The notes beneath the pieces are model-generated. The model saw nothing but the letters and a program-made list of their open reading frames with translations, did no database searches and was not told the DNA's origin. A stretch of 64,000 bases of DNA from Patescibacteria group bacterium (lineage in GTDB: Bacteria > Patescibacteriota > Minisyncoccia > Moranbacterales > DUUL01): the NCBI GenBank assembly GCA_034658815.1, contig JAYEFY010000048.1, positions 62,020 through 126,019 of the forward strand, given 5' to 3'. The position numbers and the translations under genes were made by a program. This document shows positions 2,684-55,239 of this stretch, piece after piece. Every line of letters starts with the position of its first letter. Position 1 is the first letter of the stretch.

Positions 2684-5341
2684 ATGTACCAAAACTGGCA
2701 TGCGCATGCGATTCAAAAAATTCTGAAACAATTGCGAAGTTCACAAAATGGGCTGAGTTCGGCATCAGCGGCTCGGCGGTACGCAAAGAATGGACCGAAT
2801 GTTCTTCCAAAAAAAAAGCCGCTGTCAAAAATCAGGCTTTTTCTGGAACAGTTCAACAATTCGCTGATGTTTATTTTATTCATTACGGTAGCGATCTCGT
2901 TTTTTCTCGGGCATTATTCGGATTCGATCTTTATTTCCATTGTGATCTTTATCAATACATTTGTTGGTTTTTACCAAGAGAGCAAAGCAAATAATTCTCT
3001 GCGTGCGCTGCAGAAAATGGTTCGCGTTAAAGTTCGAGTGATGCGTGATGGAAGGATGAAAGAGATCGACAGTGAACAAATTGTACAGGGAGACGTTATC
3101 TTTTTTAGCCCAGGCGACAAAATTCCGGCGGATTGCCGAATTATCAAATCGAAAGATCTGAAAGCAAACGAATCTTCATTAACGGGAGAATGGCTTTCGG
3201 TTAATAAAAAAATAGGAAAACTCGATCGGGAAACCGCCGTATCTGACAGGTACAACACACTCTTTATGGGCACGTCGGTCGAGATGGGCGAAGCGCGAGC
3301 TGTAGTCGTAAAAACAGGCGTGGAAACCGAGTTTGGAAAAATTGTAGAGCTTGTTAAGCAAACGGATGAGCCTCGAACGCCTCTTCAGAAAAAAATTGCT
3401 CATCTGTCGAGAGTTATCGGCATATTCATTATTGGACTGATAGCGCTTATTATTGCAGAGGGATATTTTATGGGTAAAGATATTGCCGAAATCTTTATTG
3501 CGTCACTGGCGCTGGCTGTTTCCGCAATTCCGGAAGGATTACTACCGGCTATTACGGTTGTTCTTGTTCTAGCCATGAGGCGCATTCTTAAACAAAGAGG
3601 AGTTGTCAAAAAATTGTCCGCGGCTGAAAGCTTGGGTAGTGTTACGGTTGTATGTTCAGACAAAACAGGCACTTTGACTGAAGGAAACATGAAAATGAGC
3701 CATATGGTTACTGACATGTCCGAACTGCTTCCCAATAAGAAATTCGAAAACGCCAATGTTTCCGGTAATCAGCAAAGATCAAACAAGACAGCTTTTACAA
3801 TCATATCTTTAACCAATGATGCGTACATTGAAAATCCGGAAGACGAGTTGCACGAATGGAAAGTAAGGGGATACTTCACAGACAAAGCGTTGCTTCTTGC
3901 CGGAGTGCAAGCAGGCTTTGATATTCAGAAGCTCGAAAAAGAATGTCCTCTGATCGAAAAGCAGAGCTTCAGTTCTCATAAGCGGTACGCGCTTTCCTTG
4001 CGCTCGAAAGGTTCCAAAAAGTATCTTTTTGTGGTTGGAGCTCCTGAAGAATTAATATCCCGTTCGAGTAATATCCACGCTGATGGTTCGCATATTGCGC
4101 TTGAAAAATCGGATAAAAAACATTTGCACAACAAAGTCGACCAAATGACCTCAAAAGGACTGCGTGTTATCGCCTGCGCGTACCGTGAATTGAAAAACGG
4201 GCAAAATGATAAATTAGACAGCCTGGTACACTCATTGTCGTTTGTTGGTTTTGTGGCTCTGCGTGATCCTATTCGCAAGGACGCGAGGCGGGCAATTTTA
4301 GAAATTCAGGAAGCCGGCATACGGCCGATAATAATAACCGGTGATCATAAGCATACGGCTATGGCGGTTGCTCGGGAGGCCGGAATCAATGTTTCTAAAA
4401 GCCAAGTGCTTGAAGGACGCGATATTGAACGAATGAACGGAGCTGAACTCAAAAAACATTCCAAAAGCGTTGCAATTTACGCGCGGGCGCTACCGGAACA
4501 TAAACTCAATGTTATCAAAGCCTTGCATCAAAACAATGAAATTGTCGCAATGTTCGGTGACGGAGTAAACGACGCGCCGGCGCTGAAAGCGGCTGACATC
4601 GGAGTGGCTGTCGGTTCAGGGACGGATGTTGTGAAAGAAGTTGCCGATGTTATTTTGTTAGATGACAATTTTAAAACGATCGTGAAAGCCATCGAACAGG
4701 GAAGAGTAGCGTTTGCAAATATCAGAAAGGTATTTATTTATCTTGTGGCCGATGACTTTACAGAGATATTTTTATTTTTAGGCGCCATGGCGCTTGGTTT
4801 GCCTCTTCCGCTTCTGGCCGCGCAAATTTTATGGATCAATCTCATTGAAGACGGACTGCCGGATATCGCGCTTACCACCGAACAGGAAACTGAGGATGTA
4901 ATGCGGGAAAAGCCAAGGAGGTCTGATGAGCCAATATTGAGTACGACAGTAAAAAAATGGATGATCGCGGTTTTTTCGATCAATAGCCTTATAACTTTTG
5001 CTTTTTTCTGGTTTTTATATCAAACAACTCAAGACATCGTCAAGACAAGGACACTGGTTTTTGCTCTGATGGCGTTTGACTCGCTTGCGTTCGCCTATTC
5101 AGTGCGTTCGCTTAAGAGGACAATATTTCGAAGAGATATTTTTTCCAACAAGATTCTTAATTGGGCTGTTGCCGCAAGTTTTTTACTTTTACTTGTGGCA
5201 ATATATGTTCCGTTCGCGCAAAAGTTTGTCGGAACTGTAGGAATATCATTATCGGGATGGCTTTTTGTTCTTGGCATCACATTTTTTGAAATTATCATAA
5301 TAGAAGTTGCGAAAAAAATAAGTTTTAAAAGCGCGGAATAG
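2684..5341 (+). CDS. P-type cation-transporting ATPase (PIIA-like, Ca2+/Mg2+ type)
   Basis: DKTGTLT phosphorylation motif, TGD, GDGVNDAPALK hinge, ~10 TM segments, 885 aa. Confidence 0.9.
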   Translation: MYQNWHAHAIQKILKQLRSSQNGLSSASAARRYAKNGPNVLPKKKPLSKIRLFLEQFNNSLMFILFITVAISFFLGHYSDSIFISIVIFINTFVGFYQESKANNSLRALQKMVRVKVRVMRDGRMKEIDSEQIVQGDVIFFSPGDKIPADCRIIKSKDLKANESSLTGEWLSVNKKIGKLDRETAVSDRYNTLFMGTSVEMGEARAVVVKTGVETEFGKIVELVKQTDEPRTPLQKKIAHLSRVIGIFIIGLIALIIAEGYFMGKDIAEIFIASLALAVSAIPEGLLPAITVVLVLAMRRILKQRGVVKKLSAAESLGSVTVVCSDKTGTLTEGNMKMSHMVTDMSELLPNKKFENANVSGNQQRSNKTAFTIISLTNDAYIENPEDELHEWKVRGYFTDKALLLAGVQAGFDIQKLEKECPLIEKQSFSSHKRYALSLRSKGSKKYLFVVGAPEELISRSSNIHADGSHIALEKSDKKHLHNKVDQMTSKGLRVIACAYRELKNGQNDKLDSLVHSLSFVGFVALRDPIRKDARRAILEIQEAGIRPIIITGDHKHTAMAVAREAGINVSKSQVLEGRDIERMNGAELKKHSKSVAIYARALPEHKLNVIKALHQNNEIVAMFGDGVNDAPALKAADIGVAVGSGTDVVKEVADVILLDDNFKTIVKAIEQGRVAFANIRKVFIYLVADDFTEIFLFLGAMALGLPLPLLAAQILWINLIEDGLPDIALTTEQETEDVMREKPRRSDEPILSTTVKKWMIAVFSINSLITFAFFWFLYQTTQDIVKTRTLVFALMAFDSLAFAYSVRSLKRTIFRRDIFSNKILNWAVAASFLLLLVAIYVPFAQKFVGTVGISLSGWLFVLGITFFEIIIIEVAKKISFKSAE

Positions 5342-5353
5342 CAGCAAAAGTTT

Positions 5354-5471
5354 AGAGCCTGTCTGAGAACCCCATATCCTGCTGCAATTTCTCCTCCAGA
5401 GGCGGACAAGCATATTTTGGCTGTCCCGCTTAGGCGGGATCGCAACGAAGAGGGTTTTCAGACAGGCTCTT
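5354..5471 (+). repeat. structured intergenic element, family 1 copy A (putative ncRNA or miniature mobile element)
   Basis: 5' agagcctgtctgagaaccc pairs with 3' gggttttcagacaggctct (19 bp). Inner hairpin cccgc-ttag-gcggg. Homologous to 14363-14484 and 39957-40083 with compensatory changes in both stems. Confidence 0.6.
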
Positions 5472-5532
5472 AAAACAAAAAGCATTGTTGAAAAAAATAT
5501 CTTATGTTATCCTATAGTATAGTCCGTTAAGA

Positions 5533-5599
5533 GACTGCTCCCAAACGCTCTTCCTGCTGCAATTCTGAAATTTCGCAGCGAAATACGATACTTGGAAAC
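5533..5599 (+). repeat. GC-rich modular intergenic repeat, family 2 short copy
   Basis: gactgctcccaaac...gaaatttcgc...cttggaaac is related to the termini of the 34120-34250 copy. 35 nt upstream of the ftsK ATG. Also carries the cctgctgcaatt block shared with family 1. Confidence 0.35.
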
Positions 5600-5634
5600 A
5601 GTTTCATAAAACTAATAGTTTCTACTTCTAAATC

Positions 5635-8073
5635 ATGGGAAAAAAATCGAAACAAGATGCAATAGACGTTCAAAATGACCAGGAGGAATATCCGGCATTA
5701 GACCATGGCGTAAAAAAGAGCATTTTTGCGGTATTGCTTTTAATGCTTGCCGTGATATTTATTTTAAGTTTGGTTGATCTGGCGGGAATTGTCGGACAGC
5801 ATATAGACAAGGGTATTGCGTTTCTGTTCGGATGGGGAAGATTTGTTCTGCCTTTAGTGATGATCGTTCTTGGAACGCTTTACTTCAAGAAAATGCAGCC
5901 AATTCGCTATACGCTTGCGGCAGTGGGAGCTATCCTATTTTTTTTAATGTTTCTCGGCCTTGTGCACATAACGAAAGATATGGATGGCATGGTCATCCAA
6001 GCTAAAATAGGCTGCGGCGGAGGTTATGTGGGTCTTGGGATCGCTTATCCTTTAGCGCATTATCTCGGAAAAATCGCCGGTGTAATTATTCTTGCAGGTT
6101 TTTCATTGATTGGGATAATGCTCATATTTAACGCTCCGCTTTATCAATTCATTGAGTTGGTAAGATCAAAAATTCCGGAAAGAAAAAAGGATAAGGAAGC
6201 GAATGGCAAGGAAGGCAAAGAAGATCTGGAAGATAAGAAAGATCAAGAAGATAAGGAGAACGGAAAGGATGCCATCGGAGAGGACATTAGTAAGACGCAA
6301 AATAATAACGAAGAAAAGAATGACAGTCAGATGGAGCAGTCAAAGCAACAAGAAGATTCAGATGAAGACAATAAAAAACACGCCGATTTATCCAACAACA
6401 TCAAAACATTTTCTTTTGATGACCGATCGGAAGATAAATTGTTTAAAACAGTACAGGGGCAATTCTTAGAAGGGAAAAAACAGGATGAGTTAAGACAGAG
6501 AAGCAATGCTTACGCTAAAACTCTGTGGAGTTCTCCTCCTTTTAACTTACTTAGGGGAAATAAAGAGCGTCCTCATCAAACCAATCTTGATCAAACAGTG
6601 GATATAATCAAAAGTACTCTGCATAATTTTGGAATCGAAGTAGAACCAAGCGAATATCATATTGGTCCCACCATAACACAGTTCACTTTCAAGCCGGCAA
6701 ACGGGGTGAAGCTGAGCAGAATTCTCGCGCTGCAGGACAATCTTGCTTTGGCTCTTGCCGCACATCCTGTGCGTATTGAAGCTCCAATACCCGGGAAATC
6801 ATTAATCGGTATTGAGGTTCCCAATGAAACCAAATCACTTGTCCAATTGCGTACGATGCTTGAGAGTGACGCGTTCAAAAAGAGACCTTCTAACTTAAGT
6901 ATTATATTAGGAGAAGATGTCAATGGACTTCCAATGTTGGCGGATATTAAAAAAATGCCGCATTTGCTTATTGCCGGATCAACCGGAACAGGAAAAAGTA
7001 TTTGTATCAATGCGATACTAACGACTTTATTGTATCAAAATTCGTTTAAAGATCTGTGCTTGATCCTTATTGATCCGAAGCGAGTTGAATTATCCATGTA
7101 TAAGGGTATTCCTCATCTCTTAACGCCTGTAATTACCGAACCTCAAAAAGTTGTCAATACGCTTCGCTGGTCCGTTGATGAAATGGAAAAAAGGTTTTGC
7201 CTGCTTCAAGAAGTTGGCTCCAGAGATATTCACTCATATAATAAAAAGGTCAATGAAGGGGAAAGGCGCCGAGTTATTGATAAAGAAACAGGAGAAGAAA
7301 AAAAGGAGATAATGGAAAAAATGCCATATATCATTATTGTAATAGATGAACTTGCGGATCTAATGGCGGCTTACGCGAAAGATATTGAAGGACCGATTGT
7401 GCGGCTTGCGCAGAAATCCCGCGCGGTAGGCATCCACCTGATTGTTTCCACTCAGCGACCATCAGTCGAAGTTATTACCGGGTTAATTAAAACAAATATC
7501 GCAACTCGAGTCGCGTTTCAAGTTCCAACGCAAATCGACTCACGGACAATTCTGGATATGGCAGGCGCTGAAAAACTGTTAGGCAACGGGGACATGTTAT
7601 TTCTAAGCGCTGATGCCGCCAAACCGCGAAGAGTTCAGGGAGTTTTCATATCAGAAAAAGAAATAAAAAGAGTCGTAAAATTTATCAAAGAGCAAGCAAA
7701 AGAGATCGATTTTGATGATGGTAAGAATCTTTCAGTATCTCTTAAACAGCAACTTGAAAGTTCAGCCAGTACTCCCGGTGGTCTTGGATCAGAGAGCACC
7801 CATGATGAAGAAATCTATAAACAAGCGAAAGAAATCGTAATACAGGCAAAAAAAGCGTCAACGTCAATGTTACAAAGAAAACTCAGCATTGGCTATGGAA
7901 GAGCGGCGAGAATCATTGATATATTGGAAGAAAATGGCATTGTAGGTCCGCCTGACGGAACAAAACCGCGCAAGCTATTGATTGACGTGAACGAGAACGT
8001 GTTGTATGGAAACAATAATAAGGAAGACCAAAAGAAAAGAGATAAATGGGCTAGAGACGAAAACGTTGATTAG
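5635..8073 (+). CDS. ftsK: DNA translocase FtsK/SpoIIIE
   Basis: 4 N-terminal TM helices, KE/D-rich linker, Walker A GSTGTGKS, VSTQRPS motif, C-terminal gamma winged-helix (MLQRKLSIGYGRAARIIDILEENGIV). Confidence 0.9.
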   Translation: MGKKSKQDAIDVQNDQEEYPALDHGVKKSIFAVLLLMLAVIFILSLVDLAGIVGQHIDKGIAFLFGWGRFVLPLVMIVLGTLYFKKMQPIRYTLAAVGAILFFLMFLGLVHITKDMDGMVIQAKIGCGGGYVGLGIAYPLAHYLGKIAGVIILAGFSLIGIMLIFNAPLYQFIELVRSKIPERKKDKEANGKEGKEDLEDKKDQEDKENGKDAIGEDISKTQNNNEEKNDSQMEQSKQQEDSDEDNKKHADLSNNIKTFSFDDRSEDKLFKTVQGQFLEGKKQDELRQRSNAYAKTLWSSPPFNLLRGNKERPHQTNLDQTVDIIKSTLHNFGIEVEPSEYHIGPTITQFTFKPANGVKLSRILALQDNLALALAAHPVRIEAPIPGKSLIGIEVPNETKSLVQLRTMLESDAFKKRPSNLSIILGEDVNGLPMLADIKKMPHLLIAGSTGTGKSICINAILTTLLYQNSFKDLCLILIDPKRVELSMYKGIPHLLTPVITEPQKVVNTLRWSVDEMEKRFCLLQEVGSRDIHSYNKKVNEGERRRVIDKETGEEKKEIMEKMPYIIIVIDELADLMAAYAKDIEGPIVRLAQKSRAVGIHLIVSTQRPSVEVITGLIKTNIATRVAFQVPTQIDSRTILDMAGAEKLLGNGDMLFLSADAAKPRRVQGVFISEKEIKRVVKFIKEQAKEIDFDDGKNLSVSLKQQLESSASTPGGLGSESTHDEEIYKQAKEIVIQAKKASTSMLQRKLSIGYGRAARIIDILEENGIVGPPDGTKPRKLLIDVNENVLYGNNNKEDQKKRDKWARDENVD

Positions 8074-8118: not shown

Positions 8119-8817
8119 ATGTTGCTTGGAGGACTGCAAAAATTAACTCTGATCGATTATCCGGGTAAAATTGCCGCGACAGTGTTTACGGTCGGATGCA
8201 ATTTCCGTTGTCCATTCTGCCATAATCCTGAACTTGTTCTTGCGTGTCATAGAGCAGAACATAAGCTGTTTCCCGAAGAAGAATTTTTCGCGTTTATTGA
8301 CAAGCGAAAGAAGAAACTGGATGGTATTTGCATAACCGGCGGCGAACCGATGATCCAGCAAGATATTCTGGAGTTTATTCGGAAAATAAAAGACAGAGAA
8401 TTCTTGGTAAAACTTGATACAAATGGAGCCTACCCTGATGTTCTTAAAAAAGCTTTCGACATGGAACTTGTGGATTTTGTCGCAATGGATATAAAAGATT
8501 CCATTGAGCATTATTCAAAAGCATGTGGTGTTGACGTTGATACTGAACGAATAAAACTTAGCGTTAAACTTATACGAAGTTCAAGGGTTGATTACGAGTT
8601 TCGCACAACTGCTGTTCCGGGAATTCATACCTATAGTGATTTCGAGAAAATAGGGTTATGGCTCAAAGGATCAAAGAAGTATGTTATTCAAAAATATCAT
8701 GACGAAGGAAAAATTCTTGATGAAAAATTAAGAATAAGGCAAAAGAACAAAACAATAAATTTGGAAAAAATAAAGCAAAAGGCTCTTCCTTATTTTGGTC
8801 ATGTCGAAATACATTAA
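8119..8817 (+). CDS. radical SAM protein, anaerobic ribonucleotide reductase activase (NrdG, TIGR02495)-like
   Basis: LIDYPGKIAATVFTVGCNFRCPFCHNPEL (CxxxCxxC-like cluster plus preceding DYPGK) and TGGEP. Confidence 0.6.
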   Translation: MLLGGLQKLTLIDYPGKIAATVFTVGCNFRCPFCHNPELVLACHRAEHKLFPEEEFFAFIDKRKKKLDGICITGGEPMIQQDILEFIRKIKDREFLVKLDTNGAYPDVLKKAFDMELVDFVAMDIKDSIEHYSKACGVDVDTERIKLSVKLIRSSRVDYEFRTTAVPGIHTYSDFEKIGLWLKGSKKYVIQKYHDEGKILDEKLRIRQKNKTINLEKIKQKALPYFGHVEIH

Positions 8818-9292
8818 GTATCTAAGTTCTAACAAGAAGATTGGCGAAGATACTAAATTCAACGCAACAGAAAGCGAGCCTCATTTCCAATTTTTTGAAT
8901 ATTTAAGAAGTAATCTACGGTATATGAACAAAAAGAACAAGCTTATCGAAATTCAAAGGGAAATTGACAGAAAGATGGGGAATGAAATTATATTGGATAA
9001 GATCAGATCAGGTGAATACAGACTGCGAACAGGAGAGGCACTTGCCCTGGAGGATAGGCCGAGCTTTTATTCAGACAGGTTTGATAAAGAATTTGAAGAT
9101 ATCGTGAAATATATAGATCAGAACGAAAAACTGGATCTTAATAATCGCGAAATGAAAGGTCACGCTAACGAGCTTAAGCTACAAATGGATGAAGGAAGAG
9201 ACAAGTTGACAATGCGAATTAAAGAAAAAGACGGAAAAGAAAAAAGCGGGGAAAGCGGGAAAGAAAAGAAAAGAAAAAAGTCATTTTTTTAA
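8795..9292 (+). CDS. hypothetical protein (charged, K/E-rich C-terminus)
   Basis: ORF only. Overlaps the preceding gene by 23 nt. No recognisable motifs. Confidence 0.4.
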   Translation: MVMSKYIKYLSSNKKIGEDTKFNATESEPHFQFFEYLRSNLRYMNKKNKLIEIQREIDRKMGNEIILDKIRSGEYRLRTGEALALEDRPSFYSDRFDKEFEDIVKYIDQNEKLDLNNREMKGHANELKLQMDEGRDKLTMRIKEKDGKEKSGESGKEKKRKKSFF

Positions 9293-10296: not shown

Positions 10297-11751
10297 ATGG
10301 AAGGGAAATTACGCTTAAGCGATGCGATAGTTTATCTTTGTTTTGGAATATTGGGCGGCGTTTTTTTAGCGTCGCTTTTTGGTATTGCCACGGCGCTTAT
10401 TTCAGGAACAGTATTATGTCTTGGCTGGCTTATTTTTATAAGAAAACATATTTTTGTCGTAAGTATTCTAATTCCGGGATTTGCATTGGGGCTTTTCGGA
10501 ATGAATTTGGAACTTCATTTTATTGGCGCGCAATACCCGGATCATTTTAAGGGATCGGCGGCGGTCATCGGCGATCCGGTAATGAAAAGTGATTATCAGC
10601 GTGTTATTCTTGAACCGATAGACAGTGAAAATTCACACAAGCGGCTAATTGCGTTCACTCCTCTATATCCGCGATTTCAATCACAAGACCGTCTTTATGT
10701 CGAGTGTATATTGAAAAAGCCTGAAAATAAAAACGACGGGTTTGACTATGTCCGTTATCTTGCCAAGGATGGAATATATAGAATTTGCGCCAAAGCTTCT
10801 TTAAAGCCATTAAATAATGGTCAGCGAGCGCATAGCGCGTTCTTATTTGATCTGAAACGAAAAATTGAGAACAGCATTGAAAGATCATTGCCGGAACCGG
10901 AATCGTCATATCTTGCCGGGCTATTGCTGGGTGGAAGCGATAGATTGCCGAAAGACATTGCCGAAGCATTTCGTCTGACCGGAACAACTCACACAGTCGC
11001 GGTGTCCGGACACAATATCACGATCATCGCGGGTGCGATATCAGTATTTCTGTTATTTTGCGGAATGTGGAGAAAGCAGGCATTTTGGTTTTCCGTAATA
11101 GGGATCGTTTCATTTGTATATTGCATCGGCGCTCCATCATCAGCAGTGCGCGCGGCGATCATGGCTATTTGCGTGCTTTGGGCGGCCAAGAACGGACGGC
11201 TTGCAAATTCAGGGAAAGCGCTGCTTTTCGCGGCCACCGCGATGGTTATGTGGTCTCCTCTTATTCTTATCTATGACGTAGGATTTCAATTGTCATTTCT
11301 CGCAACGCTGGGCATTGTATATATCTATGCCCCTTTAGCCGAGAAATTAGATATTTCAAGGGATTTTCTTGAACTTAGATCAATTATCCTCATCACTTTT
11401 TCCGCTCAAATTGCCGTGGCCGGGATTATCATCTACCAATTCGGTGCCTTTTCTCCGTATTCATTGGCAGTAAATTTTATTATTTTGCCGCTGATCCCCG
11501 TCATTATGCTGATTGGATTTATAATGATAGTGCTAAGTTTTGTTTCGATGGCTTTTGCTCAGCCGTTTGCCATCGGAGTGTGGGCGCTGCTTCATTTCGA
11601 AATTGAGACCATTGAATTTTTCTCCCATATTCCATATGTGAACATTGGCATTGAAAACGTGAGTGCCGCATGGCTGGCACTCTATTATATTTTTATTGCC
11701 GGAATTATTATATACTTACAAAAGCCAAGAATGTTATATCCCGAGAAATAA
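10297..11751 (+). CDS. comEC: competence protein ComEC/Rec2 (DUF4131 + competence channel domain)
   Basis: Polytopic membrane protein. LTGTTHTVAVSGHNITIIAG corresponds to the ComEC TGxxHLLAVSG motif. Confidence 0.85.
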   Translation: MEGKLRLSDAIVYLCFGILGGVFLASLFGIATALISGTVLCLGWLIFIRKHIFVVSILIPGFALGLFGMNLELHFIGAQYPDHFKGSAAVIGDPVMKSDYQRVILEPIDSENSHKRLIAFTPLYPRFQSQDRLYVECILKKPENKNDGFDYVRYLAKDGIYRICAKASLKPLNNGQRAHSAFLFDLKRKIENSIERSLPEPESSYLAGLLLGGSDRLPKDIAEAFRLTGTTHTVAVSGHNITIIAGAISVFLLFCGMWRKQAFWFSVIGIVSFVYCIGAPSSAVRAAIMAICVLWAAKNGRLANSGKALLFAATAMVMWSPLILIYDVGFQLSFLATLGIVYIYAPLAEKLDISRDFLELRSIILITFSAQIAVAGIIIYQFGAFSPYSLAVNFIILPLIPVIMLIGFIMIVLSFVSMAFAQPFAIGVWALLHFEIETIEFFSHIPYVNIGIENVSAAWLALYYIFIAGIIIYLQKPRMLYPEK

Positions 11752-13197: not shown

Positions 13198-14292
13198 TTG
13201 TGTCCAAATAGTATGAAATACGAAAAAGAATTTCCATTGTTCAAAAGCAAAGTCAAAGGAATTGATGAAAAGTTCAACTTATTTGATCTTGAAGGAAGAA
13301 AACGCTACTTTGAGGCGAAAGCCGGAGAGGATATAAAAAAACTCAGACGGTATTTTGATAATGGGAATACTTTTATCGCGTACATGCTCGGAAAGAAAAA
13401 TTCCGGCAAAGGAACTTACACCAAGCTTCTCATGGAACTATTTGGAAAAGATAGAATCGAACATATTTCTGTTGGTGATGTGGTAAGGTCAGTGCATTCT
13501 GACATAAGAAACGAATCAAAAAAGAAGGAACTTATCGAATACATGGAAAAGAACTACAGGGGATATATTTCGGTTGATGAAGCAATCGATGCATTTTTTG
13601 GTAAATCACAGGAGAAGTTGCTTCCAACTGAGTTTATTCTCGCACTGGTAAAGAAGGAGATGGACGAACTCGACAAAAAAACACTGTTTCTGGATGGTTT
13701 TCCCAGGGATCTTGATCAAGTTTCATACTCACTTTATTTTAGGGATCTCATAAATTATCGTGAAGACGACGATATTTTTGTGCTTATTGATATTCCGGAG
13801 TCGGTAATTGACGCGAGAATGAAAAGCAGGGTTGTGTGTCCCAAATGCCACACGCCAAGAAATCTAAAACTGTTCACGACAAAAGAAGTTGGATACGATG
13901 AAGAGAAAAACCAATATTATCTCAAATGCGATAATCCTAATTGTAATAATGAGAGAATGATCGGCAAAGAAGGAGATGATCTGGGAATTGAGTCAATTCG
14001 TAAACGGCTGGAACTTGACGGCCAACTTGCTGAAAAAGTTTTTTCGCTTCACGGCATTCCTAAAATTTTTCTCAGAAATGCCGTTCCGGTTAGCATGGCG
14101 AAGACGCATGTCGATGATTATGAAATAACGCCGGAGTACTATTACGAGCGAGATGAAAATACGAGCGAAATTATGACGAAAGAAAGGCCGTGGACCGTAA
14201 AAGACGATGAAGGAGTTGAAGTATACAGTTTACAGGCTCCTCCTGTTGCGGTGTCTTTGATAAAGCAACTGGTTAAGGTTCTCGGGTTGTAA
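13198..14292 (+). CDS. adk: adenylate kinase-family protein with N- and C-terminal extensions
   Basis: P-loop GKKNSGKGT, HISVGDVVR (AK NMP-binding H-S-GD-R), LFLDGFPRDLDQ (AK DGFPRT), Cys4 zinc LID (CPKC...CDNPNC). 364 aa versus ~215 typical. Confidence 0.65.
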   Translation: MCPNSMKYEKEFPLFKSKVKGIDEKFNLFDLEGRKRYFEAKAGEDIKKLRRYFDNGNTFIAYMLGKKNSGKGTYTKLLMELFGKDRIEHISVGDVVRSVHSDIRNESKKKELIEYMEKNYRGYISVDEAIDAFFGKSQEKLLPTEFILALVKKEMDELDKKTLFLDGFPRDLDQVSYSLYFRDLINYREDDDIFVLIDIPESVIDARMKSRVVCPKCHTPRNLKLFTTKEVGYDEEKNQYYLKCDNPNCNNERMIGKEGDDLGIESIRKRLELDGQLAEKVFSLHGIPKIFLRNAVPVSMAKTHVDDYEITPEYYYERDENTSEIMTKERPWTVKDDEGVEVYSLQAPPVAVSLIKQLVKVLGL

Positions 14293-14362
14293 AAACCGTA
14301 AATTGGTAGATTAGAGCAAGTTTGACTTTTAAATAAAAATCGTATATAATCCGTGGGATACT

Positions 14363-14484
14363 AAGAGTTTGCTTGAAAACTCCATATCCTGCTGCTGCAA
14401 TTTCTCCTCCAGAGGCGAACAAGTATATTTTAGCTGTCGCCTAGGCGAGATCGCAGCGGAAGAGGGTTTTCAAGCAAACTCTAA
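14363..14484 (+). repeat. structured intergenic element, family 1 copy B
   Basis: agagtttgcttgaaaactcc / gggttttcaagcaaactct outer stem. Inner hairpin tcgcc-ta-ggcga. ~80% identical to copy A with covariation. Confidence 0.6.
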
Positions 14485-14555
14485 GCTGTTTTATCGACAC
14501 ATTGAATTTTTATGTGAATATTTTGTTTTTCTTATAGCGCAGCCTATTCATAATT

Positions 14556-15239
14556 ATGAACATAGAAATACCAACAAATGACGCTTCTCGATCAAGTGTG
14601 GCTGATTCAGGAGGAGAAAAACCGGTGAAGTTGCAAGTTTCCGGGAAGAAGAAAGGGAAACAAGGCGTCTCGTTTTTTGTTGAGTTAGTAAAAACTCTTT
14701 TTTTGGCGTTTTTAATCATAATTCCGATCAGAACGTTTGTTTTTCAGCCTTTTTTTGTGCAAGGTTCATCAATGAAACCGAATTTTCATGATGGGGAATA
14801 TCTTATTATTAACGAACTTGGTTACAAGAAAACAGTAATTGCCGCGGGTAATAAGGAATTTTTTTCTATTGTTCCGTTCAAAAATCTAAAGCGAGGCGAT
14901 CCCGTCGTATTTCGTTATCCTCAGAATCCACGCCAATTTTTCATCAAAAGAATCGTTGGTCTTTCCGGAGAGCGTGTGGATATCCGTAATGGAAAGGTGA
15001 CAATATGCAATGAAGAGCATCCCGGAGGATTTGTTTTAAATGAAAATGAATATATCCCGAACCATGTCAAAACAAAAGGAAATGAGGAATTTGAACTGGG
15101 AAGCAATGAATATGTTGTTTTGGGAGATAATCGTTCGCATAGCAGCGACTCCAGAACATGGGGTACGCTTTCCGGTGATTTTATTGTTGGAAAAGTGCTT
15201 CTTAGAGCTTGGCCGATCAGTGAATTTGAACTTTTCTAA
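14556..15239 (+). CDS. lepB: signal peptidase I
   Basis: GSSMKPNF (catalytic Ser box), GDNRSHSSDSR (box D/E), N-terminal TM. Confidence 0.85.
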   Translation: MNIEIPTNDASRSSVADSGGEKPVKLQVSGKKKGKQGVSFFVELVKTLFLAFLIIIPIRTFVFQPFFVQGSSMKPNFHDGEYLIINELGYKKTVIAAGNKEFFSIVPFKNLKRGDPVVFRYPQNPRQFFIKRIVGLSGERVDIRNGKVTICNEEHPGGFVLNENEYIPNHVKTKGNEEFELGSNEYVVLGDNRSHSSDSRTWGTLSGDFIVGKVLLRAWPISEFELF

Positions 15240-18983: not shown

Positions 18984-21246
18984 AGTGCCAATAAGAAATA
19001 AGAATAAAAATAAGAATTTGCGCCAGCCAGTACTTTTTTGCGCACTGGCCTGTTTTTGTTTTGGAGCCGCTTTTCTTGTTTTGAATGCAAATGCTGGTGA
19101 AATAAATGTTGGAAATGCTGTGAAGCATGTTGTAGCAGACGATAATATTTTGAATGACGGCAATGAGAAAGAAAATGAAAAGAATGAGAAGGGCAAAAAT
19201 AGTGAAGTTGAAAACACTCAAGGGATGAAAAAGGAAAAAGAAGATAATGAAGCTGAAGAAACTTCAGAAAAAAAAGGAGAAAAGAAAAATGAAATAAAAA
19301 TAGAAGAAAAAAACACAGGAGAAAAAAATCCGGAAACGGGCAAAAATAGTGAAGAAGTCAAAGATGGGCAGGGAGAGGCGAAAAATGTTGAAAAAGGAAC
19401 AGTTAGAGAAAAAAATAAAAGCACAGTAAAAAGGTTAAATGAAGGAAGTAGAAATGAGATTCCGGAAAAGGATGAAAAGGAGAAAGAAGGTGAAGGGAGA
19501 ATGATTGGATTGGTAATTAATGAAATTATGCTTGGCGATGGGAAAAGCTCAAAGAATGAATTTATTGAGCTTTACAATTTTTCAAACAAGAAAATTGATC
19601 TAGACGGCTTTTCATTGAAAAAAAGAACAAAAAGCGGCAGAGAAAGTAATTTGGTAAGTTCCGCAAAATTTTCGGGCAGTATTCAAGCAAGAGGATTTTT
19701 TGTGATTGCTCATCCAAATTATGCAGAAGCCATCAATGCGGATTTAAGATATTCAGGAGCCTCTTATTCAATTTCAAGGAATAATTCGATTTTTTTACGC
19801 AACTCGGACAAGGAAACCATTGATGTTTTGGGATGGGGAGAATGTTCGGGAGCCTGCGTCAAAGACGCTATTTGCAAAAGCAATCCCCCCAATGGACAAA
19901 GTTTAAGCAGAAAAGGATCAAACAAGCCTAAAAGTGAAAATGCCGAAGAGTTTGAAATTACCAGCATTGTAACGCCGGGAGAAAAGAACATTTTTTCAAG
20001 CAGAGTTAAATATCCTAAAGACATTTTCCTTAATGAGATTCTGCCTAATCCTGACGGCAGGGATAAAAATTCCGAGTGGGTTGAACTGCGAAACGAAAAT
20101 AAAAAAGAAATTTCACTAGACAGATGGAGCATTCAAAATCGCTCGGGGAAAAGATTCAAATTAGAAGATCTTACAATAAAACCCAAAGAACTGAGAGTCA
20201 TTTTTTTGAAAAACACCAGTTTTGTAATTCGTAATTCAAAAGAGAATTTACAGCTTATTGATCCGGCAGGAAATATTGTTGATGTTGTTGAGATCAAAGG
20301 ATCCGCGCCTTCCGGAATTTCTTATGGTTGGAGTACAGAAAGAGGATGGAGCTGGAACAGAAAAATTTCACCGGGCTCTTCCAATGTCATAAACAAACTG
20401 CCAAAAATCCACGTTAAAAAACAAAAAAAGATTTATAAAGATACTTATGCCGTGTTTGACGCGTCCAAAACAAAAGATGAAAATGGCGATAAGCTTAAAT
20501 TTCGCTGGGATTTTGGAGATGAGCATCGGAGTTATTTGAAAGAAACAAGACATAAATACGCCGAAACAGGAACATTCCACGTGTCCCTGGAAGTCAATGA
20601 CGGATATGAGATGGCGAGTAAGCATTTTAAAATTCGTGTAAGAAAATATCCCCGTTATAATTTACAAATAGTTCGGCTCATTCCAAATCCATCCGGATCT
20701 GATAGGGGCAATGAGTCAGTAATAATACGAAACAATACAAGAAAGAAAATAAATTTATGCGGATACTATGTTGCGACAGGAAGGAATAAAAGGATGAGCT
20801 TAAGGCATCCGATATATGATGATTTTATTATTGGTTCACGCAAAGAGAAGTCATTAAAGAATAGCGATATTTGTAAATTTTCACTCTATAATACAAAAGG
20901 AGCTGTTGTGCTTCTTGCTCCCGACGGAAGCAGAATAGATTCGGTGAAATATCAAAAAGATAAAATAGGCGACGATGACATTTATTTTAAAAATGATGAT
21001 AATACATGGGAATGGATTGAAGCAAAAGACGGTTCCTCAAAGGCAAACGCGGTTGCTGTTATTGATAAAAAGACCGAAGAAATTCAACAACAATTCCAAT
21101 GGTACAGGGTAACTAGGAATGAAAAACTGACAATATGTGAAACGGGCAGAAAACAGAAAATTGCAAATTGGATAAATAAAAGGAAAACGTGGCTTCAATA
21201 TTTAGAAAAAATTCTCAAAACACAGATTTTTGTTTTTGACGTGTAA
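18976..21246 (+). CDS. secreted protein with three lamin-tail domains (LTD) and a PKD domain
   Basis: Signal-peptide-like N-terminus. INEIMLGDG...EFIELYN, LNEILPNPDGRD..EWVELRN and RLIPNPSGSDRGNESVIIRN are LTD signatures. WDFGDEH...TGTFHVSLEVNDG is a PKD signature. The track start is a TTG and the true start is uncertain. Confidence 0.7.
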   Translation: MGAVPIRNKNKNKNLRQPVLFCALACFCFGAAFLVLNANAGEINVGNAVKHVVADDNILNDGNEKENEKNEKGKNSEVENTQGMKKEKEDNEAEETSEKKGEKKNEIKIEEKNTGEKNPETGKNSEEVKDGQGEAKNVEKGTVREKNKSTVKRLNEGSRNEIPEKDEKEKEGEGRMIGLVINEIMLGDGKSSKNEFIELYNFSNKKIDLDGFSLKKRTKSGRESNLVSSAKFSGSIQARGFFVIAHPNYAEAINADLRYSGASYSISRNNSIFLRNSDKETIDVLGWGECSGACVKDAICKSNPPNGQSLSRKGSNKPKSENAEEFEITSIVTPGEKNIFSSRVKYPKDIFLNEILPNPDGRDKNSEWVELRNENKKEISLDRWSIQNRSGKRFKLEDLTIKPKELRVIFLKNTSFVIRNSKENLQLIDPAGNIVDVVEIKGSAPSGISYGWSTERGWSWNRKISPGSSNVINKLPKIHVKKQKKIYKDTYAVFDASKTKDENGDKLKFRWDFGDEHRSYLKETRHKYAETGTFHVSLEVNDGYEMASKHFKIRVRKYPRYNLQIVRLIPNPSGSDRGNESVIIRNNTRKKINLCGYYVATGRNKRMSLRHPIYDDFIIGSRKEKSLKNSDICKFSLYNTKGAVVLLAPDGSRIDSVKYQKDKIGDDDIYFKNDDNTWEWIEAKDGSSKANAVAVIDKKTEEIQQQFQWYRVTRNEKLTICETGRKQKIANWINKRKTWLQYLEKILKTQIFVFDV

Positions 21247-25747: not shown

Positions 25748-25749
25748 AT

Positions 25750-25909
25750 TACCTTGAATTACGAAATGGCTTTTACTGCGGTTTCCGCACGAGCGCGATT
25801 TCATCTTTCAAGCTCAATTTTGGTAGCCCTGCTGCGAAAAATCTCGCTTTCAAGCGAACTCGCGCTCGTGCAAAACCCTTGCTACAAACCCATTTCGTAA
25901 TTCAAGGTT
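25750..25909. repeat. ~160-bp extended imperfect palindrome (19-bp perfect outer arms plus nested inner arms)
   Basis: Outer arms accttgaattacgaaatgg / ccatttcgtaattcaaggt. Inner arms ccgcacgagcgcga / tcgcgctcgtgc. Lies in the efp 3' region. Confidence 0.55.
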
Positions 25910-25926
25910 ATTAGAAATGGATAGAT

Positions 25927-28247: not shown

Positions 28248-28550
28248 GTGTCCAAGATGTACTCATCTAGTACAGTTCTAGAAAAATATGTAAAAAACAA
28301 GAAATCAAATGACTATATTTTTGAAAGCACGCGAGGAAGCAAATTAACCGAAAGATCTGTTCAAAAAATATTTAGACAGGCGCTAAAAAAGTCTAAAATA
28401 AAGAGACAAGCAAGTTGTCATAGTCTAAGGCATAGTTTTGCTACGCATTTACTTGAAAACGGAGTTGATATAATATATATACAAGAACTATTGGGACATA
28501 AAAGATTGGAAACAACACGAATTTACCAAGCACTTTTAAATAAAAGATAA
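28248..28550 (+). pseudogene. tyrosine recombinase/integrase, C-terminal catalytic fragment only
   Basis: [36 protein letters not shown] (R...H..R...Y catalytic region). No room upstream for the N-terminal ~200 aa. Very AT-rich. Confidence 0.6.
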
Positions 28551-37270: not shown

Positions 37271-38815
37271 GTGGCGGTTTGTTTGGAACAAACCATGGAC
37301 ATTATTATTATAGTTGCCGGAACATTGGTGGCTGGGGTTATAATTGGGTATTTTACCCGAATAATTTTGGCGCGCAATCAAATTGATTCTGCTGAAGCAA
37401 AAGTGTCTCGAATGCTTGAGGATGCCAAGATTAAATCAAAAGAACAACTCCTAAATTCTAAAGATAAGGCGGTTAGAATTCTGGAAGAAACAAAGAAAGA
37501 AGAAAAGAAACGGCGAGATGAAGTCCGAAATCTTGAGCACAGGATTGAAATTAAAGAGCAGAAGGTAGACAGAATTTTTGCCCATTCGGAAAAAGAAAAA
37601 AGAGTGCTTAAAAACAAAGTTCGAGATATTAAAAAGATCCGGGAAGAGATATTAAATGTAAAACAACAACAAATTGAAAGGTTGGAAAAGATTGCCTGCA
37701 TGAATAAAGACGAGGGGATAAAAGTACTCTTGAAGATTGCCGAGAAAGAAAATAAAGATGAGCTTATTAAAAAAATAACTGAACTCGAAAAAGAAAAAAA
37801 AGAAGAACTTGAAAAGAGAGCAAAAGATATGATGGCGGTAGCAATGCAGCGATATGCCGGTTCGCATGCCGCGGACACAACAACAACGACGATTACGATC
37901 CCGTCTGATGAGTTGAAAGGACGAATTATTGGGCGCGAGGGTCGAAATATCAAGACTCTTGAACGGCTTACAGGAGCAGAGATTATTGTTGATGATACGC
38001 CTGAGGCAATTGTAATTTCCGGTTTTGATGCTATGCGCCGAGAAATAGCAAAAATTGCCCTGGAAAGATTAATTGAAGATGGGAGGATTCATCCGGCTCG
38101 CATTGAAGATGCAGTCAAAAAAGCAAAAGAAGAACTTAATCAAAAAATAAAAGAGGCAGGGGAGGCGGCAGTGTATGATGTCGGAATTCCCGGCCTTGAT
38201 CCGCATTTGATCCAGCTTTTAGGAAGGATGAAATATCGCACAAGCTATGGACAAAATGTATTGCTTCATTCGCTTGAAGTAGCGCATCTTTCCGGAATGC
38301 TTGCTTCGGAACTCGGTCTTGACGTCCTAATAGCAAAGAAAGCCGGGTTACTTCATGATATTGGCAAATCCGTTGATCACGAAATGAAAGGAACTCATGT
38401 AGAGATCGGGATGAGTATTCTTAAAAAGTTCAATCAGTCGCCCGAAGTGATAAACGCGATGAAATCTCATCATGAGGATTATCCGTTCGAGAGCAATTAC
38501 GGGCTTGTCATTGCCGCTGCGGACGCATTAAGCGCATCTCGTCCCGGAGCGCGCAAAGATACCTTGGAAAATTATTTAAAGCGGCTGACGGAACTTGAAG
38601 AAGTAGCAATGTCTTTTGAGGAAGTTAATAAATGTTACGCAATTCAAGCGGGACGTGAAGTGCGCGTGTTTGTAAATCCGGAGAAAGTTGATGATCTTGA
38701 AGCGATGAAGCTTGCGAAAAAAATCGCATTGAAAATAGAAGATAAATTGAACTATCCCGGGGAAATAAAAGTTAATGTTCTGCGAGAGACGCGTTCAGTT
38801 GAATATGCCCGATGA
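37271..38815 (+). CDS. rny: ribonuclease Y
   Basis: N-terminal TM, coiled coil, KH domain ([26 protein letters not shown]), HD domain ([10 protein letters not shown]...LLHDIGK). Confidence 0.9.
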
Positions 38816-39954: not shown

Positions 39955-39956
39955 TA

Positions 39957-40083
39957 AGAGCCTGTTTGAAAATCCCACATCCTGCTGTAATTTCTTCTCC
40001 AGAAGCCAGAGGCAGACAAGCATATTTTGGCTGCCATGCTTCGGCAGGATCGCAACGGAGAAGGGTTTTCAAACAGACTCTTA
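39957..40083 (+). repeat. structured intergenic element, family 1 copy C
   Basis: aagagcctgtttgaaaatccc / gggttttcaaacagactctt outer stem. Inner hairpin ctgcc-atgcttc-ggcag. 12-nt insertion relative to A and B. Starts 3 nt after the yjbQ stop. Confidence 0.6.
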
Positions 40084-40168
40084 GTTTGTAAGTTCGTTAA
40101 AATGTTATTGGAAACAATACCTTATCGCATTCGGAAGAATGCGTTTTTTGATGCAAAGACCGCGGTGC

Positions 40169-41234: not shown

Positions 41235-42287
41235 GCCATATGTGTTTAGACATTACCAAAATGTTTTATGCACACTCTTTTGTCGGTCTTTGTATTTTAA
41301 TTAAATTATAATTTTCTAAAAATTGATTAGGGCTTTTTCCATTTAAGCTACAATGCCTTAAATCATTGTAATACATATTCCATAATCTAACACGATATTT
41401 CAATTCATCAATACTAGCAAACTTTTCTCGAGAGTATAATCTTCTCTGATCGCTTCCATGGCTTCTTTCAACAGTGCCATTCTGAGCTGGCTTTCCTGGA
41501 TCAATTAAGTAGTGAATAATTTTATTCTTGGCGCAAAACTTATCCAAGTAGTGAAGCTTGGGGTTAAAGGGGTCGGCGCTTTTCAAATAACCGGTATATC
41601 TATTGGTAAATGTGGAATGATTATCTGTCTTTACGGCTCTAATTTCAAAAGGAGCCTTTCTAATTATTTTTTCTAGAAACTTAACAGAGTGGCAATTAGA
41701 TTGTTCGTCATATATTTCCATGTGTCTCCACCTGCTGGACAAGTCTATAGCTGTATACTGATAATATTGCTTATTGGCGACTTTTCCCGGAACATACTTA
41801 ACATCTATTTCAATTATTTCTCCGGGTTTCAATTCACTTCTAATATATTTATACTTCACTCTCTTAATTCTATATTTCCTGACTAAGCCTTCTGTTTTTA
41901 ATATTTTACCGACAGTTCTTTCGTGAATATTGATATTTTCATCTTTTAAATCCCATTTTATCTTTAAAGCGCATTCTTTCTTTTCTTTCCTTAATTCAAT
42001 AACCCTTTCTTTTACTCTAATGGAAGTTTCTTTGGGATTAGTTTTGGGCCTAGTTGATTTAGGAATCAATTCCTCCTCCCCATATTTCTTATACAAGGAA
42101 ATCCATCTTTCTAAACTTCTTTGGCTGTAAGGACATACTTTAGCGGCGTCTTTTAATTTTACTTCTTTGTTATAGATGGGAAGCACCCACCTTAACCTTT
42201 CTTCTTTAATTGTTTTTGGCATATTTATACACATACATGAGAATAATACTATTCTCAGAAAACCGCCATAGGTGTGTGCACATTACC
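41235..42287. mobile_element. IS481-like element bounded by imperfect 24-bp direct repeats
   Basis: gccatatgtgtttagacattacca at 41235-41258 and gccataggtgtgtgcacattacca at 42264-42287 (20/24 identical, same orientation) bracket the transposase gene. No clear terminal inverted repeats found. Confidence 0.45.
41266..42234 (-). CDS. IS481-family transposase (HTH + rve DDE integrase core)
   Basis: N-terminal HTH. KTDNHSTFT (D2), DPGKPAQNGTVERSHGS (E region). 322 aa single ORF, typical of IS481. Confidence 0.8.
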   Translation of the reverse strand: MCINMPKTIKEERLRWVLPIYNKEVKLKDAAKVCPYSQRSLERWISLYKKYGEEELIPKSTRPKTNPKETSIRVKERVIELRKEKKECALKIKWDLKDENINIHERTVGKILKTEGLVRKYRIKRVKYKYIRSELKPGEIIEIDVKYVPGKVANKQYYQYTAIDLSSRWRHMEIYDEQSNCHSVKFLEKIIRKAPFEIRAVKTDNHSTFTNRYTGYLKSADPFNPKLHYLDKFCAKNKIIHYLIDPGKPAQNGTVERSHGSDQRRLYSREKFASIDELKYRVRLWNMYYNDLRHCSLNGKSPNQFLENYNLIKIQRPTKECA

Positions 42288-53519: not shown

Positions 53520-55037
53520 ATGAGCAAAAATATTTCTGATATTACACAGGAAATTGATGATGTGCTTGAAATGAGCGCATCGGCAAAAAAATCTTTAAAG
53601 AGCAATAAAAATAGTTCTCTAATGAAACAGCTTCTTGAAGATCATCCTATGAAGATGCTGCAAGTCGGTGAAAAAATAGAAGGGCTTGTTGTAGGAATTG
53701 ATTCCAAAGCATTATATATCGATCTTGAATTATTCGGTTCGGGCATTGTCTACGGCAAAGAAATTAAAGATGGCTTTGGGGCAAACAGAAAAAAACTTGA
53801 AATTGGCGATAAAGTTGTGGCTGTTATACAAGATCTTGAAAATGAAGATGGCTATGTCGAGTTATCGATTCGTGAAGCTGTTCTTGAGGAAGTATGGAAG
53901 GATCTTATCCAAAAGAAAGATAGCCGTGAACCGGTTGATACAAAGATTCTTGATGCAAATAAAGGCGGTCTTATGGTTGAAATTAATGGTGTAACGGGAT
54001 TTATGCCCGTAAGCCAGTTGACATCGGAACATTATCCTCGCGTTGAAGACGGGGATAAAAATAAAATTCTTGAGATCTTAAGGACTTATATCGGTACCGA
54101 AATGTCGGTAAGTGTTTTAGATGTTGATCAACAGGAAGACAAACTTATTGTTTCTGAAAAAGAGGCAAATCGTGACAAGGAAAAAACAGCGATTTCCGAG
54201 CTTAAGGTCGGAAATATAATTGAAGGAGACGTGAGCGGGGTTGTTGACTTTGGCGCGTTTGTCAAATTTTTTCCGCCTTCAAAAAAAGGTTCAATGAGAG
54301 AAGAAGATAAACTCGAAGGACTTGTGCATATATCACAACTTGATTGGCAGTTAATTGATGATCCGCGAAAAATTATTAAAGTTGGTGATAGGATCAAAGC
54401 AAAAATTATCTCCATTGATGACACGAGAATTTCACTATCTGTTAGAGATCTCAAGAAAGATCCTTGGGTTGCAGCCAATGAAAAATATGGCAAGGACGAT
54501 ATCGTCAAAGGAAAAGTGCACAAAATCAACCATTTCGGAGCATTTGTATATCTTGATAACGACATTCATGGACTGGCCCATGTTAGCGGTTTTGAAGCAT
54601 ATCCGCAGAAAGGCATAGACGAAATTGTTAAAATAGGTGAGGAATACATGTGGCAAATTATGTCGATAGAGCCAAGCGAGCACCGTATGGGGCTTAAATA
54701 TGCTGGTGAAACCGAAAAAGTGAAGCCCTCTAAAGTTGGCGAACGAAAGGAGATCAGAGAGCCGGGAAATAAAAAAGAAGATAAAAAGAATTTTAAGAAC
54801 AGGAAGAAGAAAGAAGACAAAAAAGAAATGAGAAAAAGCGTGAAAAATGGAGGAGAGCCGAAGGATAAAAAGGAAGAGAGAAAGAAGAAAAAAGACGATG
54901 ATAAAAATGGCAAGAAGAAAAAACGAGACGGTAAGAAAGAATCGGATAAGAAAAAAGAGCCGAAAGATAAGAATGGCGGCGAGAAAAAAGAAAAGAAGGA
55001 TAAAAAGATAAAAACCGATAATAAAAGTCTGTCTTAA
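53520..55037 (+). CDS. rpsA: 30S ribosomal protein S1 (four S1 domains) with K/E-rich tail
   Basis: Repeated S1 OB-fold domains (G..V.G.V......GAFV.), ~120-aa Lys/Glu/Asp-rich C-terminus. Confidence 0.85.
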   Translation: MSKNISDITQEIDDVLEMSASAKKSLKSNKNSSLMKQLLEDHPMKMLQVGEKIEGLVVGIDSKALYIDLELFGSGIVYGKEIKDGFGANRKKLEIGDKVVAVIQDLENEDGYVELSIREAVLEEVWKDLIQKKDSREPVDTKILDANKGGLMVEINGVTGFMPVSQLTSEHYPRVEDGDKNKILEILRTYIGTEMSVSVLDVDQQEDKLIVSEKEANRDKEKTAISELKVGNIIEGDVSGVVDFGAFVKFFPPSKKGSMREEDKLEGLVHISQLDWQLIDDPRKIIKVGDRIKAKIISIDDTRISLSVRDLKKDPWVAANEKYGKDDIVKGKVHKINHFGAFVYLDNDIHGLAHVSGFEAYPQKGIDEIVKIGEEYMWQIMSIEPSEHRMGLKYAGETEKVKPSKVGERKEIREPGNKKEDKKNFKNRKKKEDKKEMRKSVKNGGEPKDKKEERKKKKDDDKNGKKKKRDGKKESDKKKEPKDKNGGEKKEKKDKKIKTDNKSLS

Positions 55038-55153
55038 AAGTCCACGCTCTACTGCAAATTCCAGATTCCGGCTGTTCCGAGTGCTCACTCAGGATTTATC
55101 ACTCGTCCCATCACTCGCGAACGATGGAACTCGCTCGCCGCGGCGAGTACTCC

Positions 55154-55225
55154 GCATATGCTTCCTTGTGCTTCATCCCGCCTCGGCGGGATCGCGGCGA
55201 AAGAAATTTTCAAAACAGGCTTTTA
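55154..55225 (+). repeat. structured intergenic element, family 1 partial/degenerate copy D (3' half)
   Basis: gcatatgc...cccgcc-tc-ggcgggatcgcggcgaaagaaattttcaaaacaggctttt aligns with the 3' half of copies A-C. The 5' half is replaced by an unrelated GC-rich hairpin region. Confidence 0.45.
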
Positions 55226-55239
55226 GTAATGACAAAGTG

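Follow-up and report, generated by a model that had tools for sequence, protein, structure and literature searches.

A family of rod-like palindromic elements, probably of mobile origin, in the intergenic spacers of an uncultured Patescibacteria genome

The adk–lepB element and its further copies

The DNA analyzed here, a stretch of 64,000 nucleotides hereafter called the window, belongs to an uncultured Patescibacteria genome related to Moranbacteria. From position 1 to 64000, nearly all genes are located on the + strand, and both GC skew and AT skew are positive throughout. An earlier, sequence-only reading had placed a hairpin element (copy B of what is termed family 1) between an extended adenylate kinase gene and lepB, a context that could be confirmed by the ADK-domain and Peptidase_S26 open reading frames flanking the element. 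The features of this locus are the following.

13198..14292, + strand: adenylate-kinase-like gene (extended, 364 aa, ADK-domain ORF), 5' neighbour of copy B
14322..14350, + strand: promoter-like site TTGACT-17-TATAAT, near-consensus (11/12 matches), ending 11 nt before copy B
14362..14484, + strand: copy B of family 1; 123-nt rod-like hairpin bounded by TAAGAG...CTCTAA; 128.5 bits with covariance model R1
14364..14382, + strand: 5' arm of the copy B outer stem P1, AGAGTTTGCTTGAAAACTC
14392..14398, + strand: 5' strand of the copy B inner helix P2, CTGCTGC
14437..14448, + strand: small GC-rich tetraloop hairpin of copy B, TCGC-CTAG-GCGA
14453..14459, + strand: 3' strand of the copy B inner helix P2, GCAGCGG
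14464..14482, + strand: 3' arm of the copy B outer stem P1, GGGTTTTCAAGCAAACTCT
14556..15239, + strand: lepB, signal peptidase I (Peptidase_S26 ORF), 3' neighbour of copy B

Copy B (14362–14484, TAAGAGTTTGCTTGAAAACTCC...GGGTTTTCAAGCAAACTCTAA) has a predicted minimum free energy (MFE) of -57.9 kcal/mol (z = -8.1), a stability equalled by none of 200 shuffled sequences, and similar results relative to shuffles were obtained for copies A, C and D. All seven pairs of P2 form in copy B, including a U-G pair which is invariant in the family, and an extra CTG is present immediately 5' of P2 when compared to copies A and C. With its start 70 nt past the adk stop codon and 11 nt past the near-consensus promoter, copy B is an exception among the large copies. 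A coding role was rejected upon inspection, since the overlapping open reading frames (14369–14581 on the + strand and 5095–5445 on the - strand) differ between copies and the compensated stem changes would alter the encoded peptide.

With regard to the upstream gene, adenylate kinases usually have a length of ~190–220 aa; the adenylate-kinase-like gene encodes 359–364 aa in all cases (364 in the window, 359–362 in the relatives examined), of which the ADK domain covers residues 138–273 only. The presence of the long protein in all relatives examined indicates that the extension is conserved in the clade.

Family 1 comprises five same-strand (+) copies, A to E, of 81–205 nt within the 64-kb window. 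Besides copy B, these are:

5352..5474, + strand: copy A, R1 139.5 bits, starting 10 nt past the stop codon of a P-type ATPase gene
5528..5608, + strand: copy E, minimal, with a 14-nt tip; 50.7 bits (E = 2e-9) with model R2
39955..40084, + strand: copy C, R1 125.5 bits, starting directly past the TAA stop codon of a UPF0047 gene
55022..55226, + strand: copy D, long, with ~85 extra nt in the tip, filling the S1–cmk spacer

A repeat search located copies at 5354 (A), 14364 (B), 39957 (C) and 55024 (D, longer and more diverged), all on the + strand, and a scan with a degenerate arm pattern returned seven arm matches versus 0.3 expected (0/100 shuffles). The covariance model R1, built from copies A, B and C, recovered all three at 125–140 bits and gave a weak match at 5525–5611, the region of copy E, where the same base with almost no tip could be recognized by eye. 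A second model, R2, describes the base only and replaces the tips by a linker; it consists of the 19-bp P1, the internal loop and a 6-bp P2 core (CUGCUGC/GCRRCG) and was trained on copies A, B, C and D together with an element of the related genome L120. Copy E had been left out of this training set and was recovered by R2, at 5528–5609, though absent from the model.

The conserved part of the family is therefore the base, in which the 19-bp outer stem and the internal loop are followed by a helix of 6–7 bp. What varies is the tip, with a length of 14 nt in E, ~60 nt in A–C and ~145 nt in D, and of 113 nt on the same base in the L120/L121 element. The arms, 19–22 nt long and 90–95% complementary, form terminal inverted repeats, and each copy as a whole is a near-continuous inverted repeat folding into a rod.

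The elements lie in the contexts P-type ATPase|FtsK, Adk|LepB, UPF0047|OmpA-like and S1|Cmk. Copy E is found ~50 nt 3' of copy A, 9 nt past a -10-like TATAGT and ahead of ftsK. On the 3' side of copy C, a separate terminator-like hairpin with a T-run (~40127–40150) is followed by a promoter-like site for the OmpA-family gene. Copy D carries the S1 stop codon (55035–55037) within its 5' arm, such that the S1 gene takes its stop and its five final codons from the element, and the cmk ATG follows at 55240. An RNase Y gene is present in the window at 37271–38815.

Copies A, B and C are 74–81% identical to each other, while their 200-bp flanks, upstream as well as downstream, are 47–53% identical, which equals shuffled controls (mean 0.44–0.51, max 0.46–0.55). 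The flanking genes are unrelated in all contexts, in line with the earlier claims that the other copies sit in unrelated intergenic regions and that the element is not a simple duplicated spacer. Only the element is duplicated, and reading the copies as a segmental duplication fails. Chance similarity or segmental duplication of a spacer thus has a negligible probability: the flank identities, the excess of arm matches and the scores of 125–140 bits with the covariance model all stand against it, and no point in its favour was found. As in the size definition of MITEs, the elements are shorter than ~300 bp, noncoding and present in several dispersed copies with unrelated flanks.

Pairing, compensation and strand

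Comparison of the outer stems of copies A and B (19 pairs each) revealed six differing pair positions. Four of them are double changes (three C-G to U-A, one U-A to C-G), the other two affect a single side, to or from G-U, and none is uncompensated, exactly as had been stated for the six substitutions in the sequence-only reading. Moreover, all four changes of the 3' arm are located opposite the six changed positions of the 5' arm (hypergeometric p = 0.004). Extending the comparison to an alignment of five sequences, 92% of the cells are paired and 12 of the 25 pairs are double-changed, a result reached by none of 500 shuffles, and pairing amounts to 35–51% in slid controls with partners shifted by 1–3 columns. 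Copy D in addition contains a transversion-type compensation (G-C to U-A) at the very position creating the S1 stop codon, where G>T is met by C>A in the other arm. The complementarity of the arms is clearly maintained.

The 3' half of the elements also contains a small tetraloop hairpin (CCCGC-UUAG-GCGGG in A, UCGC-CUAG-GCGA in B, UGC-UUCG-GCA in C and CCCGC-CUCG-GCGGG in D), which shows two independent double changes and is an alternative to the rod pairing. Parallel changes affect three segments in A (5395–5441), B (14406–14450) and C (40005–40049): the first reads AGGCGGA, AGGCGAA and AGGCAGA, respectively, its complement CCCGC, UCGCC and CUGCC, and the third AGGCGGGA, AGGCGAGA and CGGCAGGA. 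It looks as if two mutually exclusive helices had both been kept. Copy A is bistable in this respect (-57.6 versus -57.4 kcal/mol), and the rod is preferred over the alternative by 8.6 kcal/mol in B and by 4.4 kcal/mol in C. A riboswitch- or attenuator-like two-state switch was rejected on these grounds, as only copy A among A, B and C is isoenergetic.

If P1, P2 and the small hairpin are considered together for six copies, 139 pairs are Watson-Crick, 15 are G-U when read on the + strand, 19 are G-U when read on the - strand, and three are other mismatches. With wobble pairs about equally frequent on the two strands, these data do not demonstrate that selection acts on an RNA fold. The U-G pair of P2, invariant in six of six copies (the five in the window and the L120 element), mildly favours the + strand. 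MFE values are approximately equal on both strands for A–C and better on the - strand for E (29.3 versus 18.2), D and the L120 element, with E and the L120 element folding 11–17 kcal/mol better on the opposite strand; several elements are thus much more stable on the minus strand despite their sense-strand UTR location. All copies are co-oriented with the surrounding genes and with replication, as the GC skew is positive along the whole window. A single shared orientation is expected in 1/16 of cases under random insertion.

The compensated changes had been put forward, in the sequence-only reading, as an argument for structural selection. That part of the claim which concerns pairing stands, since pairing exceeds chance by far in the alignment described above; selection on an RNA fold, however, is not the sole reading. 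Compensatory changes across the hairpin are reported to be common in REPINs (PMC3116915), and replication template switching can rewrite both arms, or several paired positions, in one event (PMC8794818). Compensation in mobile hairpins, template switching and the even split of wobble pairs leave structural selection only partly supported.

These observations bear directly on the possibility that family 1 is a cis-acting structured RNA module of the + strand, whose base is bound by a host protein or RNase and which is selected locus by locus for processing, stability or translation without being mobile. We consider this explanation unlikely, even if several features speak for it: several unpaired stretches are conserved alongside covarying stems, the U-G pair does not vary, the three segments change in parallel with copy A being bistable, and all copies are in sense orientation inside predicted transcripts, where C is enclosed by a stop codon and a terminator, and B and E come just past -10 boxes. 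On the other hand, the element is absent at the same spacers in relatives (see below), its neighbour genes share no function, and its location varies between 5' UTR, 3' UTR and stop-codon overlap. The G-U cells (15) and A-C cells (19) favour neither strand, the opposite strand gives the more stable fold for E and the L120 element, bistability is lacking in B and C, and a metagenome pattern scan yielded nothing related.

A bolder form of the same idea, a new class of modular cis-acting RNA, appears less likely again. Here, a host RNA-binding protein or RNase would recognize the base with its asymmetric internal loop, the tip being exchangeable; the element would punctuate transcripts, set mRNA 5' and 3' ends and uncouple neighbours, and the three-segment changes would reflect a real two-state switch. 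The three-segment changes, the invariant U-G pair and the minus-strand stability keep the modular RNA reading alive, and a genuine modular RNA element is accordingly retained as a minority reading of low probability. If it were true, ultra-small Patescibacteria, with almost all genes on one strand in long co-transcribed runs, would use the element for punctuation.

The same spacers in related genomes

The relatives used for comparison are other species, with 73–85% identity in the marker proteins HisS and S1. The gene order adk-lepB-hisS-HIT is kept in relatives with 77–85% HisS identity, and the rpsA-cmk order is kept as well. Using R1 and R2, copy B was not found in the adk–lepB spacer of L116, L118, L120 or L122. 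The lepB promoter TTGACT-17-TATAAT is common to the window, L116 and L120 (the two relatives read), and among these three only the window carries an element between this promoter and lepB. Similarly, copy D is absent from the S1–cmk spacers of L130, L131 and L133 (87, 9 and 26 nt, respectively). When 55022–55226 is removed in silico, the S1 reading frame again ends in AAG-TAA, the arrangement found in L133, and the spacer shrinks to ~10 nt, comparable to that of L131. With B and D missing at orthologous spacers under conserved gene order, both look like lineage-specific insertions; loss of the element in the relatives, rather than insertion here, may also be the cause of its absence.

At the position of copy D, L130 contains a plain terminator, in which a T-run comes after the hairpin AGAGTCGTTGC...GCAGCGACTCT (11416–11462). 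The arms of this hairpin bear a loose resemblance to the family 1 motifs AGAG...CUGCUGC/GCAGCG...CUCU, with a non-significant R2 score of 15 bits.

The promoter comparison also bears on whether B, and likewise E, could be independent small-RNA genes, i.e. stand-alone sRNAs of ~125 nt transcribed from their own promoters. The near-consensus promoter ending 11 nt before B and the -10-like box ending 9 nt before E would fit such genes. However, the same promoter precedes lepB in relatives which do not carry the element and is therefore the lepB promoter, no terminator follows B or A, copies A, C and D lack a promoter and lie against or across stop codons, and there is no Rfam match. Altogether, sRNA genes are a very improbable explanation.

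Outside the window, the sole other member of the family was found in one MAG, L120 (18575–18741), and is identical in L121. The closest relative, L116, instead carries a different hairpin family with three copies at adk|lepB, lepB|hisS and HIT|next gene:

8717–8838, L116: hairpin copy starting 1–4 nt past the adk stop codon
9774–9895, L116: hairpin copy starting 1–4 nt past the lepB stop codon
11760–11901, L116: hairpin copy starting 1–4 nt past the HIT stop codon

The outer stems of this family are wholly rewritten between copies and still complementary, and its members fold ~10–22 kcal/mol better on the minus strand (-52, -51 and -56 versus -30, -31 and -46 kcal/mol). Further long hairpins are present in L116 at 295–416, 7191–7337 and 20893–20997, and more distant relatives contain hardly any such hairpins. 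Within the window, an unrelated 164-nt rod hairpin at 25748–25911, located between the terminator of a 1264-aa surface-protein gene and the 3' end of efp, has 26-nt outer arms (92% complementary), inner arms of 23 nt and an MFE of -73 and -81 kcal/mol on the two strands, and is probably another repeat family. No similarity was detected by blastn-short between family 1 and the L116 family, the further L116 hairpins or the 25748–25911 hairpin.

Broader searches were negative. At the gathering threshold, Rfam gave 0 matches in the whole 64-kb window, B, A+E and D matched nothing in E-value scans beyond miRNA and snoRNA noise below the threshold, and scans of L116 and L120 gave nothing. A scan of a genome collection with the GC-rich 3' motif GCYTNGGCRRGATCGCRRCGRA yielded 80 loci, none of which passed the covariance model and which represent chance matches in high-GC genomes. 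A stringent gapped pattern containing both conserved anchors had 0 matches in metagenomes, a gapped pattern had 0 matches in viral contigs, and blastn of copy B against phage and plasmid records gave no match.

Nature of the elements and comparison with known repeats

Several identities were rejected. An intrinsic terminator does not fit, as a terminator scan found none at A or B and no U-tract directly follows any copy. The 64-kb window contains no tRNA genes, and a tRNA-derived origin was dismissed for this reason. No RAYT/Y1 (Y1_Tnp) or IS630-type gene was found among the scanned ORFs of the 64-kb window, and the sole transposase of the window (41266–42234) was rejected as the parent IS because of its unrelated ends (TGCACAC...). 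This transposase gene, of the DDE type (rve + HTH) and on the minus strand, is the single gene of an IS481/IS3-like insertion sequence at 41269–42280, which has inverted ends TGCACAC... and direct flanking repeats of ~25 nt (GCCATAKGTGTKTRSACATTACCA) at 41236–41262 and 42266–42292. Membership in the Correia repeats was refuted by the arms AGAGYYTGYYTGARAA, which are unrelated to the CREE end variants AACAAAAA and AAATTTAAA and to the core ends CCGGTACGG and TCAGGACAA (all from PMC2649163), and by the host being a member of the Patescibacteria and not Neisseria. An integron attC site was rejected as well, since the ends TAAGAG/CTCTTA do not contain RYYYAAC/GTTRRRY cores, the neighbours are syntenic housekeeping genes and no intact integrase is nearby.

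The last of these results touches on a more general explanation at the DNA level, in which the elements would act as a recombination (attC-like), replication or uptake signal in the form of a single-stranded hairpin or cruciform, with complementarity arising from template switching and not from selection. Wobble pairs favouring neither RNA strand, the ability of template switching to produce multi-base compensated changes (PMC8794818) and the single orientation relative to replication under a GC skew that is positive throughout would be in agreement with this. We nevertheless regard a DNA-level site as very improbable: the flanking genes are syntenic housekeeping genes and not cassettes, direct reading of the ends shows no attC-type core sites, no integron integrase was found, only a 100-aa recombinase fragment far from any copy, and template switching accounts for kept pairing and not for dispersal. 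Similarity of the fragment in question (ORF at 28248–28550) to the tyrosine recombinase (Phage_integrase) family is confined to the C-terminal part of the latter, and the ORF is probably a gene fragment.

Taken together, these results make it reasonably probable that family 1 is a palindromic repeat of the MITE/REPIN/Correia/ERIC kind, non-autonomous and specific to this lineage, which spreads, or once spread, into spacers. The ends are long and complementary, size variants share them, the flanks are unrelated and the spacers are occupied in a lineage-specific manner under conserved gene order, all of which points to a known kind of repeat; with different hairpin families in the same spacers of a sister lineage, we read family 1 as a small palindromic repeat that is, or formerly was, mobile. 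Mobility itself is inferred, with no cognate transposase found in the window and no target duplication proven. In C, D and E the core has a TA at each end, in A and B at one end, and TA...TA, being self-complementary, may just extend the stem; the empty-site reconstruction for copy D fits best with no target duplication. Some features argue against a mobile repeat, namely the number of copies (five in the 64-kb window and one in another MAG), their single orientation and the lack of a cognate transposase. Classical MITEs have their highest sequence conservation at the ends, and the covarying ends found here speak against such an element.

As a palindromic repeat, copy B would have inserted into the lepB leader, with 11 nt separating it from the -10 box of the conserved promoter on its 5' side. 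Given this position relative to the predicted promoter, the lepB mRNA most probably has copy B at its 5' end and would then start with a very stable rod of 123 nt. The imperfect RNA duplex of 40–45 bp would protect the mRNA end (the 5' end for B and E, the 3' end for A, C and D) or, alternatively, would be cut by RNase III as in Correia elements. By analogy, stabilisation or RNase III processing would be the likely effect on the host mRNA.

Well-documented small palindromic repeats exist in proteobacteria, cyanobacteria and pneumococci, and our literature search found none described for Patescibacteria/CPR. If reduced genomes with very short spacers tolerate or exploit such hairpin elements, the elements mark sites of transcript punctuation, and the copies described here lie immediately behind a stop codon or a promoter or, in one case, span a stop codon. 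The presence of different hairpin families in the same spacers of two close lineages suggests fast turnover and could aid strain typing of uncultured organisms. For annotation, small ORFs called across such elements are spurious, as exemplified by the 79-aa ORF at L121 11580–11819.

The likeness of family 1 to known repeats is one of kind and not of membership, with no homology at the sequence level. Long imperfect duplexes between the cistrons of a polycistronic transcript are also formed by phage T7-type and operon-internal RNase III hairpins. The analogy is a functional one; these hairpins are single conserved sites, whereas family 1 is a dispersed repeat family. REPINs resemble family 1 in being ~100-nt hairpins made of two inverted halves and a spacer, dispersed extragenically and able to form a long hairpin or small local hairpins, with structure proposed in ssDNA or mRNA (PMC3116915). 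In contrast to REPINs, which occur in hundreds, family 1 has a tiny copy number, no RAYT/Y1 in the window and arms that are not short GC-rich REP palindromes with a conserved tetranucleotide. With regard to REPIN-type halves, the GC-rich tetraloop hairpin CCCGC-UUAG-GCGGG is located in the 3' half, and the 5' half holds only a weak CCUC-CA-GAGG. The ERIC/IRU elements of enterobacteria, likewise imperfect palindromes (~127 bp), lie in transcribed intergenic regions and come in longer and shorter forms that share the same ends; their effects on mRNA stability depend on context (see the review PMC3184786). They differ by occurring in both orientations, unlike the single orientation of family 1, and are unrelated in sequence.

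Compared to the Correia elements (CREE/NEMIS) of Neisseria, family 1 differs in its Patescibacteria host, its handful of copies and its covarying inverted ends, as Correia elements comprise few fixed variants, and neither a demonstrable TA duplication nor an IHF site or outward promoter was identified in it. Correia elements are nonetheless the closest analogues of family 1, which mirrors them in its size variants on shared ends, its terminal TA and the copy placed between a promoter and its gene. They are intergenic palindromic repeats of ~100–160 bp with long inverted ends and TA at the ends, and they fall into discrete size classes (104–108 and 153–157 bp) by internal deletion or insertion (PMC2649163). 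Their insertions are strain-specific and differ between close relatives, and copies are found between a native promoter and its gene, as for mtrCDE, where the element lies within the mRNA and is a substrate of RNase III (PMC2649163).
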